From a virus (Duplodnaviria > Caudoviricetes): a stretch of DNA of 64,000 nt. The position numbers and the translations under genes were made by a program. The notes beneath the pieces are model-generated. The model was not told the origin of the DNA and did not search any database. It was given only the letters and a program-made list of their open reading frames with translations. The DNA lies in IMG/VR virus record IMGVR_UViG_2700989102_000001, positions 32,001 to 96,000 of that record. One strand, 5' to 3'. Position 1 is the first letter of the stretch, and every line of letters starts with the position of its first letter. Shown in pieces: positions 25,224 to 59,944 of this stretch.

Positions 25224-25290
25224 GCGCACGGCCGGAACGGTCCGGCATGAATTCCGATTCATCAAGGTTCAACTCCTTGCGTGCGCACCA
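25224..25290 (+). ncRNA. 67 nt tRNA-like RNA lacking canonical D and anticodon loops
   Basis: 7 bp acceptor GCGCACG/CGTGCGC + ACCA; T-arm CAAGG-TTCAACT-CCTTG; two 6 bp tetraloop hairpins between. Confidence 0.7.
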
Positions 25291-56072: not shown

Positions 56073-56873
56073 ATGATTGAGCCCGAGCGGATTATGTTCC
56101 TTGGGGACACCCACGGCAACGCGGGGTGGACCCGCCAGGCAATCGACTACGCGGCCGGCAATGGCTGCGATGTTATTGTCCAGGTGGGCGACTTCGGCTT
56201 CTGGAGCGATAACGCGGACACCGCCGCATTCCTAGCTATTACCCAGTCACGCCTGGCCAAGCACGGCATCACCCTCTACTGGGTGGACGGAAATCATGAG
56301 GATCATGATCGCCTCGCGGCCCGCCCGACGATGCAGAAGCCGCACCATCACAGGGGGCCGTGGAGCCTGCCCGACAGCCCGAATATCATCCATCTGCCTC
56401 GCGGCTACCGCTGGCACTGGTGGGGGCAGGCTTGGATGTCATTGGGCGGTGCGGCCTCGGTTGACCGCCTCGCGCGGAAGCCAGGCAAATCCTGGTGGCC
56501 GGGGGAGACCCTGACTGACGAGGACGTGGAGTTCGCTTCGCGGCCTGGCAATGTAGACGTCATCGTTGCCCACGACGCTCCTTATGGCGTGGACATCCCC
56601 AAGATCGGCATCGGCGAACCGAATACCGACAGCGGATGGCCCTTCGCCACCCTTCTGGAGTCTTCGGAGCATCGCCGCAAGGTTCGCCAGGTGGTTGATG
56701 CCGTCCGGCCGCGGCTTTACGTACACGGCCATTACCACCTCCGCTATCAAGCTTATTGCCGGCTCCCTGGCGGGGACCGCACGCTGGTGCAGGGGCTCGA
56801 CTGCGATGGCACGCCGGCACACCTGAGCACCATGTTCCTGAATAGGTCTACCCATGAGGAAATGGATAGCTAA
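56073..56873 (+). CDS. Metallophosphoesterase
   Basis: GDTHG, GDFG, DGNHE, H.AP, HGHYH. Confidence 0.9.
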   Translation: MIEPERIMFLGDTHGNAGWTRQAIDYAAGNGCDVIVQVGDFGFWSDNADTAAFLAITQSRLAKHGITLYWVDGNHEDHDRLAARPTMQKPHHHRGPWSLPDSPNIIHLPRGYRWHWWGQAWMSLGGAASVDRLARKPGKSWWPGETLTDEDVEFASRPGNVDVIVAHDAPYGVDIPKIGIGEPNTDSGWPFATLLESSEHRRKVRQVVDAVRPRLYVHGHYHLRYQAYCRLPGGDRTLVQGLDCDGTPAHLSTMFLNRSTHEEMDS

Positions 56874-58341: not shown

Positions 58342-58395
58342 CGGACCAAGAAGGGAACAGCAAAAAAATAGACCCCTCCAAGCCTCTCAACGATG

Positions 58396-58424
58396 CTCAA
58401 ACGGGAGGGGCCGTGTGGTACACT
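58396..58424 (+). promoter_or_regulatory. SigA-type extended -10 promoter for the RNA cluster
   Basis: CTCAAA-17 nt-TACACT with TGTGG extension. Confidence 0.55.
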
Positions 58425-58461
58425 AGATACTAGTTCCGGGCGCGCAACCCGGAAGGCGCGA

Positions 58462-58629
58462 CAGAATGCCTGTATCCGCGTGGATGCGGGGGCGGTGGCT
58501 CTCCTGCGGGCTCCCCCATATGCGCTGGGGGCGCTACGGAGAGTTTGGGACACCGCGAACGGGAATTGGCGCAAGACCGGGAAACCGGGCCTTGATGCCC
58601 CCCGTTGGGTTCGATTCCCGGGGATTCTG
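58462..58629 (+). ncRNA. ~170 nt tRNA-shaped RNA with greatly extended internal arms
   Basis: Terminal stem CAGAAT(G)CC/GGATTCTG adjoining T-arm TTGGG-TTCGATT-CCCGG; three internal helices. Confidence 0.55.
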
Positions 58630-58679
58630 CTTCGCGCAAAGCCCAGGAGTGGTTGCCCTGTTGAAAACTAGCAACCTAC

Positions 58680-58751
58680 GCGCTTGCGGTCGAGTTGGAA
58701 AGACTCCTGGCTTCCACCCAGGTTATGCAGGTTCGAGTCCTGTCGAGCGCT
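58680..58751 (+). tRNA. tRNA-Gly (TCC)
   Basis: Acceptor GCGCTTG/CGAGCGC, U73, anticodon arm CCTGG-CTTCCAC-CCAGG, T-arm GCAGG-TTCGAGT-CCTGT. Confidence 0.92.
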
Positions 58752-58752
58752 C

Positions 58753-59110
58753 GGAGGCTTAAGCTAACAAGCCGCCAGAAACTAAATTAGCCGATAGTTG
58801 GCAGCCCTAGACGTTAAATCACCCTGCCCGGCGTTCGCTTCCGTCGTCAACCAGAAGCATGAACTTGGTCGGAGCTTTGTGGCAGCGGGGTGGAATTAAC
58901 CCCAGGCCCTCCGACCTGGCCCTACCCCCGCCCGCCTGAATACAGGTAAGTCAGAGGGGCTGACTTCGAAGGTGGCGGGACTCAAAAGGGTTTACCCAGG
59001 ACGGCCCACCTGGGGATCAAAAATGGGTAACGCGAGTTCCTGCCCGCCCCTCGCAAACAAGGGCGGTGCCGACTTTAAGGAGGTCTTTCCATGCGTTAGG
59101 TAGCTAACAA
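58753..59110 (+). ncRNA. Putative ~350 nt structured RNA 3' of tRNA-Gly
   Basis: No ORF of 60 aa or more in any frame; many nested stems. Confidence 0.5.
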
Positions 59111-59856: not shown

Positions 59857-59928
59857 TGGCCCGTAGCTCAATTGGCAGAGCGGCCGGCGGTAATTCGGCG
59901 CGTCTCGGTTCGAGTCCGGGCGGGCTAC
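59857..59928 (+). tRNA. Atypical tRNA, anticodon GTA (nominally Tyr)
   Basis: TGGCCCG/CGGGCTA, TAGCTCAATTGGCAGAGC D-arm, GCCGG-CGGTAAT-TCGGC, CTCGG-TTCGAGT-CCGGG. Confidence 0.8.
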
Positions 59929-59944
59929 CTACTTTTCCTGTGAG

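Follow-up and report, generated by a model that had tools for sequence, protein, structure and literature searches.

Several enzymes recognise the helix that the acceptor stem and the T arm of a tRNA form together: RNase P, RNase Z, the enzyme that adds CCA and those that modify the T loop. In engineered tRNA scaffolds, an RNA placed within the anticodon arm is protected and processed by the tRNA frame. The current understanding of phage tRNA genes is that they counter defences that cut tRNAs, and the tRNA gene cluster of phage T4 also yields the stable RNAs "species 1 and 2", of unknown role, which are made and processed with the tRNAs. Look-alikes of tRNA are known as the t-elements of plant mitochondria (PMC1920247), and the M. 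smegmatis RNA YrlA is described as being cut by RNase P and receiving CCA (PMC4201824). The phages of Cluster J carry polynucleotide kinase, RNA ligase and tRNAs, for which a role in RNA repair against host evasion mechanisms is proposed (PMC3706429). Anticodon-less tRNA look-alikes in phage tRNA loci are hardly studied; we find no description in the literature of the element that is the subject of this work or of tRNA look-alikes in Cluster J, and the passages of Pope 2013 on Cluster J that touch this subject mention tRNAs only.

The DNA considered here (the window, a stretch of 64,000 nucleotides) is taken from a 106-kb record, the genome of a mycobacteriophage of Cluster J (genus Omegavirus). 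Over their full length, the 441 bases that surround the element match 24 named Cluster J records at 98.4-99.3%. The features to which we refer are the following.

58456..58637, + strand: oversized tRNA-shaped element, 182 nt, with a predicted fold (shuffle z -2.7 to -3.5)
58374..58410, + strand: hairpin of the abiF RNA motif (antitoxin type), RF03085 at 54.9 bits (gathering score 37)
58414..58424, + strand: putative extended -10 promoter-like motif, TGN + TANNNT, read from the sequence
58434..58454, + strand: short 7-bp leader hairpin that lies after the presumed start and before the element and folds weakly (z -1.74)
58680..58752, + strand: tRNA-Gly(UCC), called by ARAGORN, RF00005 at 55.2 bits
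59754-59835: DUF3800-IV-like RNA, 42.9 bits, sub-threshold
59857-59929: tRNA-Tyr, called by ARAGORN
56073-56873: metallophosphoesterase gene, upstream of the element
25224-25290: mini tRNA look-alike with an encoded CCA (fold z -3.79)

The element is placed between the putative promoter motif and tRNA-Gly, 42 nt upstream of the tRNA and on the same strand. The RNA that resembles the DUF3800-IV motif scores less than the gathering threshold of 60.7, but the likeness is clear (E 2.7e-5 over 1.8 kb); it lies 1.1 kb past the element locus and 21 nt before tRNA-Tyr, an arrangement shared with phage Omega (L003 2365-2446), and a protein search finds no DUF3800 protein in the phage genome. After tRNA-Gly there are ~220 non-coding bases (about 58858-59075) that are extra relative to Omega; the stretch 58753-59095, in which they lie, folds no better than its shuffles (z -0.82) and has no Rfam match.

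We consider the fold of the element first. The minimum-free-energy fold of 58462-58629 has an energy of -85.2 kcal/mol (z -2.71, with 2 of 200 shuffles equally good), and every helix listed in a first-pass annotation of this DNA is present in it. In our own shuffle test (300 dinucleotide shuffles per segment), the 168-nt core gives a z of -3.04 and the full 182-nt unit (58456-58637) one of -3.47. The comparison with shuffled sequence that the annotation had named as a check thus favours the element, with z from -2.71 to -3.47. Folded singly, the hairpin in the D position has a z of -3.88, the first long arm -2.85 and the second long arm -3.09.

The predicted architecture is a five-helix junction. 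It is closed by a stem in which 58456-58467 pairs with 58624-58637; the core fold has 6 bp of this stem, and a wider fold adds 6 bp outward across a 2-nt bulge (58456-58461 with 58632-58637) for a total of 12 bp. The closing stem of the first-pass annotation therefore exists but was given too short, and the outward extension makes 58456-58637 the unit, with both ends buried in the 12-bp helix. The hairpin at 58469-58490 does occupy the D position, as the annotation had it, but its 7-9 bp carry a 4-nt loop without GG. There follow the first long arm, in the anticodon position (58492-58556, 65 nt), the second long arm, in the variable position and with a GNRA loop on top (58558-58606, 49 nt), and the T hairpin (58607-58619), in which 3 bp carry a canonical T loop of 7 nt. 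Few bases link the helices of this compact junction: 1, 1, 1 and 0 nt between successive ones and 4 nt after the T arm. In an alternative pairing, an 8-bp stem with one bulged G is stacked on a 5-bp T stem. The description of the whole as a cloverleaf with enlarged arms is right in its topology, which is that of a class-II tRNA, but with a closing helix of 12 bp and no D loop, the element is less tRNA-like than that description implies.

How much of this likeness would be expected by chance? In simulated genomes of the same size and composition, scanned on both strands for a T-type hairpin and then a 6-nt closure within 260 nt, there are 0.6 such matches per genome and at least one in 46% of the simulations; the expectation for a given 338-nt gap is about 0.001. 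A signature this common by chance proves little alone, and it is notable here for its position beside a tRNA gene.

The element belongs to no family that we can recognise. Rfam (4227 families) is searched at gathering scores and then at E up to 10, both on 1.8 kb and on 211 bases alone with the most permissive filters, and it returns no match to the element at either level. The sole line from the 211-base search is a microRNA match with E 1.3, which we judge meaningless. The comparison with known families by Infernal, also named beforehand as a check, gives no match to tRNA, tRNA-Sec, tmRNA or YrlA (Rfam, E up to 10); for tRNA (RF00005) this holds on the 1.8 kb and on the 211 nt, and ARAGORN calls only tRNA-Gly and tRNA-Tyr at the locus and leaves the element uncalled. 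The single features agree with this in part. The T arm at 58607-58619 has the canonical loop, and the closing stem resumes with its 3' strand 0-4 nt further on. The D-position loop, of 4 nt, has no GG, and the loop in the anticodon position has A at its second place. With neither a U33 nor a 7-nt anticodon loop, the element is non-decoding, as had been claimed. It is equally not a tmRNA, in agreement with the first-pass annotation: ARAGORN and Rfam find none, a tag frame is absent, and the third acceptor pair is G-C and not the G-U of an alanine-type acceptor. The long "D" stem with its 4-nt loop, the long extra arm and the possible 8+5 bp stack recall tRNA-Sec, but this is a resemblance only: RF01852 is not matched at E up to 10, and a UCA loop is absent. 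The fold of the element, its stability and the absence of a known family are computational observations.

We search for relatives of the element in several ways. By blastn against 50,697 phage records, 28 are matched, of which 24 cover the full element at 98.9-100% identity and are all Cluster J; the remaining four are short chance matches (E 2 or more). The 24 copies vary at 2 sites, one in an internal loop and one that changes G-C to G-U, and two contig data sets show the same two variants. Since the copies vary so little and the flanks are conserved as strongly as the element, this conservation is uninformative for or against the structure. Pattern scans give 1 match in viral contigs (Cluster J), 6 in species-representative genomes (none actinobacterial) and 10 in metagenomes, none of the last with the spacing of the element and the best scoring 15.7 bits with R1, a covariance model of the element. 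This model was run over the window and 99 loci (206,069 bases) and then over 44 loci (33,767 bases); it gives 225 bits for the self-match and 15.7 bits for the next best. Among related loci and those with an abiF hairpin, ~240 kb in all, it thus detects no relative. A search with the 104-aa protein encoded next door yields 7 loci, every one from Cluster J. A diverged copy of the element is found neither by blastn nor by the pattern scans, the loci of the 104-aa neighbour or R1, and its arms have no further copies in this genome or in those of other phages.

Some other tRNA-like structures come to light in these searches. An uncultured phage contig contains, ~225 nt after an abiF-like core, a 141-nt element (L033 935-1075) in which a closing helix of 22 bp encloses a tRNA-like core; this core has a D-type loop, and its T arm adjoins the 3' strand. 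The element of this contig folds with a z of -6.70 and scores 14 bits with R1, a likeness in architecture only. Five of the 10 metagenome matches (L152-L154, L156 and L157) look like ordinary tRNAs, with canonical acceptor, D and T arms and an encoded CCA, except that a GAAA tetraloop stands where the anticodon loop is expected; since this tetraloop was demanded by the search pattern, their likeness to the element is built in. Each of the five abuts a real tRNA (Gly, Lys or Pro), which is tRNA-Gly(UCC) in three of them. In L151, L158 and L160, about 410-555, a conserved non-coding stretch has a T-loop-like sequence that is near-perfectly complementary to a segment ~130 nt upstream.

While no diverged copy is found, the same site in sister phages is informative. 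The order in the window is abiF hairpin, promoter motif, oversized element, tRNA-Gly. The sister phages Pound, Omega and LittleE have other modules at the locus.

L002 1620-1925: ~300-nt module of Pound
L003 1000-1500: alternative modules of Omega
L127 800-1140: alternative modules of LittleE

In Pound, the order is hairpin, promoter motif, an unrelated element of ~300 nt and tRNA-Gly; at this identical site, its sequence is common with the window to just past the -10 motif and then diverges. In Omega, a T-loop look-alike of ~66 nt comes first, followed by a variant of the promoter motif, the 300-nt element and tRNA-Gly. In LittleE, an abiF hairpin is followed by the 66-nt look-alike, then by the -10 motif and by a truncated form of the 300-nt module, and tRNA-Gly is missing. 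The 5' part of the ~300-nt module is tRNA-like in the Omega fold (z -3.70), with an acceptor-like stem, a good D arm and a long arm in the anticodon position, and a 3-bp mini hairpin stands where the T arm is expected. The ~66-nt look-alike of Omega combines an imperfect acceptor-like stem of 8 bp with a hairpin that ends in a GNRA loop and with a canonical T loop; the fold of the corresponding region of LittleE is not significant alone (z -0.99). Neither the ~66-nt look-alike nor the ~300-nt module has an Rfam match, both of these Omega-type modules are absent from the phage of the window, and no local similarity is found between the oversized element and the Omega/Pound module. Across Cluster J, at least four non-coding modules are interchangeable at this locus, and because sister phages do without the element, it is dispensable.

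The promoter motif deserves a comment here. The first-pass annotation saw an extended -10 motif ahead of the element, and it is indeed there (58414-58424), although a simple -35/-10 scan does not detect it. The TGN + TANNNT motif recurs before the modules in four spellings (window, Pound, LittleE and Omega), and this recurrence is the best support for a putative promoter.

The phage keeps a second look-alike far from this locus, at 25.2 kb, which had also been proposed at the outset as a tRNA mimic. Its 67 nt (25224-25290) form a 7-bp acceptor, two 6-bp hairpins with 4-nt loops and a 5-bp T arm, end in an encoded CCA and give a z of -3.79. This mini look-alike is kept in 44 Cluster J records, with diverged copies that are 85-87% identical. 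In the diverged copies, the second hairpin is shortened (a 6-nt length change), and one of its pairs changes from U-A to C-G on both sides, which is one compensatory change. The anticodon-less fold, the 44 records and this change bear the proposal out: the phage carries at least two anticodon-less tRNA look-alikes. The mini and the oversized elements are built alike: in both, a tetraloop hairpin takes the D position, and linker bases are nearly absent. The best Rfam line for the mini look-alike is mascRNA, at 23.2 bits (25224-25286) and below the gathering score of 42.5. We rejected the candidate explanation of the mini element as an attP core. Such a core adjoins int (Pope 2013), and the only integrase match is 8 kb away.

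We now consider the abiF hairpin that precedes the promoter motif. The segment 58374-58410 is a full-length match to RF03085, well above its gathering score, and no Abi_2 (AbiF) protein is found in the phage genome. In Clostridioides difficile, an RNA of two abiF motifs is reported to act as antitoxin by binding the AbiF toxin and neutralising it (bioRxiv 10.1101/2025.04.15.648962). The 18-base core of the motif is present in at least 118 viral contigs by a pattern scan, and the loci counted are the 111, among the matches listed, that have at least 250 bases on each side. A T-arm-type hairpin lies within 250 nt on the same strand downstream in 44 of these 111 and upstream in 16; by ARAGORN, a tRNA starts downstream in 32 of the 111 and ends upstream in 15 (all among the matches listed). 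Among the same listed matches, the downstream elements mostly start 17-22 bases past the core, which is a few bases past the hairpin, and 31 examples that we folded are cloverleaf-like, with the acceptor stem and the T arm kept and the rest variable. With Rfam, again among the matches listed, the partner reaches the tRNA model in 4 of 20 loci. The longest downstream ORFs (65 of 84 distinct ones, among the matches listed) include Abi_2 in 3/65 and metallophosphoesterase in 11/65 when compared with Pfam. In phages, the abiF hairpin is mostly an orphan that is tied to tRNA genes or look-alikes.

Mycobacteriophages of other clusters provide examples, with the hairpin within a tRNA array or at its edge. 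In Bromden and MrMagoo, the hairpin separates tRNA-Gly from the tRNA that comes next, at gaps of 2-6 bases, and in Lolly9, it is 2 bases before tRNA-Asn. The tRNA array of Bromden also has an unannotated gap of 300 nt (L128 817-1117) with a possible degenerate tRNA near its end. In a plasmid collection, the abiF hairpin has weak matches only (79% identity, E 0.6), all of them in plasmids of Pseudomonas. The work that describes the abiF motif (Weinberg 2017) may already touch on nearby tRNAs in its supplement; in the literature that we searched, we find no description of abiF hairpins within phage tRNA arrays, and a cyanophage paper lists an abiF RNA and, in the passage that does so, makes no remark on its neighbours (PMC9964418). 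A hairpin of the AbiF-antitoxin kind inside tRNA arrays, mostly without an adjoining AbiF gene, suggests antitoxin mimicry via tRNA processing, and this wider observation may matter more than the element itself. The locus in the window is not a composite of this type, in which the tRNA(-like) part starts within ~10 nt of the 3' end of the hairpin: the gap is 46-51 nt here against 2-9 nt elsewhere, and with the promoter motif in between, the link between hairpin and element is one of position only.

What, then, is the oversized element? One answer is a small protein gene, as annotated in some records: an ORF (58393-58671) overlaps the element and is called a hypothetical protein in several of them (e.g., Wanda gene 180, 92 aa). 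This is scarcely credible. The two ORFs that overlap the element have GC contents by codon position of 0.67/0.61/0.62 and 0.62/0.64/0.62, without the signal of four real genes nearby (0.38-0.49 at the second position and 0.70-0.76 at the third), the start of the ORF falls inside the abiF hairpin, and most records leave the stretch unannotated. The element is non-coding. A Y-RNA-like molecule that borrows the Ro60 (Rsr) of the host would account for the long closing helix and the T-arm domain, and M. smegmatis is reported to have Rsr, YrlA and a T-arm-bearing YrlB, with YrlA encoded by some mycobacteriophages as well (PMC4201824). We nevertheless think this very improbable: at E up to 10, Rfam reports nothing of the kind, 58430-58680 contains no Ro-binding motif (GNCGAAN0-1G), no TROVE/Ro60 protein is matched in the 106-kb genome, a D arm is lacking, and the arms do not follow the order described for YrlA (T arm, closed acceptor-like hairpin, D arm). 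The place of the element between the promoter motif and tRNA-Gly, and the long structured leaders that Pound and Omega have before the same tRNA, would also suit a cis-acting leader of the tRNA-Gly precursor, which would control its maturation, stability or amount and have no function of its own. Yet two unrelated leaders of 180-300 nt, each with a tRNA-like part, exceed the needs of a leader, and LittleE retains modules without tRNA-Gly; we regard a leader role as improbable.

The reading that we favour, with a confidence that stops a little short of even, is that the element is a tRNA-derived scaffold RNA that shares a transcript with tRNA-Gly, is excised by the enzymes that process tRNAs and belongs to a locus of RNA counter-defence. 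The T arm stacked on the acceptor-like closing stem would be the part that host tRNA enzymes read, and would have been retained for that reading; a tetraloop hairpin would have replaced the D arm, and two long hairpins the anticodon and variable arms. Transcription would proceed from the motif at 58414-58424, with the element as the first part of a precursor shared with tRNA-Gly, and the tRNA-processing machinery would release and stabilise it, the cut of RNase P at the 5' end of tRNA-Gly setting its 3' boundary at the latest. The long arms would be the working part, which may bind or soak up a host factor, as in a natural "tRNA scaffold". With an orphan antitoxin-type hairpin and a DUF3800-IV-like RNA at the locus, the most likely role would be to counter RNA- or tRNA-directed host defence, and the metallophosphoesterase upstream, the RNA repair genes of Cluster J phages and the absence of Abi_2, DUF3800 and Ro60 proteins from the phage are consistent with such a conflict. 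That the same phage keeps a second anticodon-less look-alike of the same design supports the scaffold, as do the stable and compact fold and the swapping of modules at this site. Against it weigh the 12-bp helix, which buries the ends, unlike those of usual RNase P substrates; the lack of any relative found; a T arm and closure that chance alone supplies about 0.6 times per genome; the purely positional link to the abiF hairpin; and the dispensability of the element in sister phages. Much the same observations speak for its main rival, a functionless relic, in which a duplicated or captured tRNA gene has decayed and taken up palindromic insertions to become a spacer in a recombination-prone non-coding stretch: the element is confined to 24 near-identical records, is conserved no better than its flanks and is replaced by unrelated sequence in sister phages, and its buried ends and its chance-prone T arm and closure weigh on the same side. 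This rival is a serious one but on balance doubtful. Every arm is unusually stable (z -2.9 to -3.9), the junction is compact and contains no decayed helices, the closing stem reaches 12 bp, the element lies directly behind a motif that is also kept before other modules, and its arms are unrepeated elsewhere in the genome or other phages.

The scaffold reading can be extended to the locus as a whole. It may be a modular counter-defence locus, in which orphan antitoxin-type RNAs and anticodon-less scaffolds lie by tRNA genes and are freed by host tRNA enzymes; the element would then be a tRNA-framed decoy that traps a host factor of abortive infection, and modules would be swapped according to the defences met. 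This larger proposal is speculative, and we think it unlikely as it stands.

Finally, we compare the element with the known systems. Like the mascRNA of MALAT1 and the t-elements of plant mitochondria, it has an anticodon-less, cloverleaf-like fold in which the helix of acceptor and T arm is kept, and it adjoins an RNA, as they adjoin the RNA whose end they define. Those two are RNase P/Z processing signals of ~60 nt with free ends, however, whereas the element has 182 nt, two long extra arms and a 12-bp closing helix, and Rfam gives no mascRNA match in its 211 nt; a weak one (28.6 bits) appears in one abiF-adjacent look-alike (L035). No relationship by descent is implied by this likeness. With YrlA and YrlB, which are described from M. 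smegmatis and some mycobacteriophages, the element shares its non-decoding nature, the T arm and a long terminal helix; it differs in its arm order, lacks a D arm and the Ro-binding motif and matches no Rfam family, and the phage that carries it has no Ro60 gene. The abiF-adjacent look-alikes of uncultured phages also keep the acceptor and T arm, leave the D and anticodon arms free, have a D-position hairpin without GG and follow an abiF hairpin on the same strand, but they are 60-85 nt long and begin 2-9 nt past that hairpin, whereas the element has 182 nt and a promoter motif in between, and the covariance model R1 finds no similarity between the two. With the T4 "species 1 and 2", the element would share production and processing alongside tRNAs, and with the engineered scaffolds a protecting tRNA frame. 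Should the element prove to be a stable RNA that is processed, the "tRNA scaffold" that engineers use for structured RNAs would have a counterpart in nature, and there would be a handle on what such look-alikes bind.
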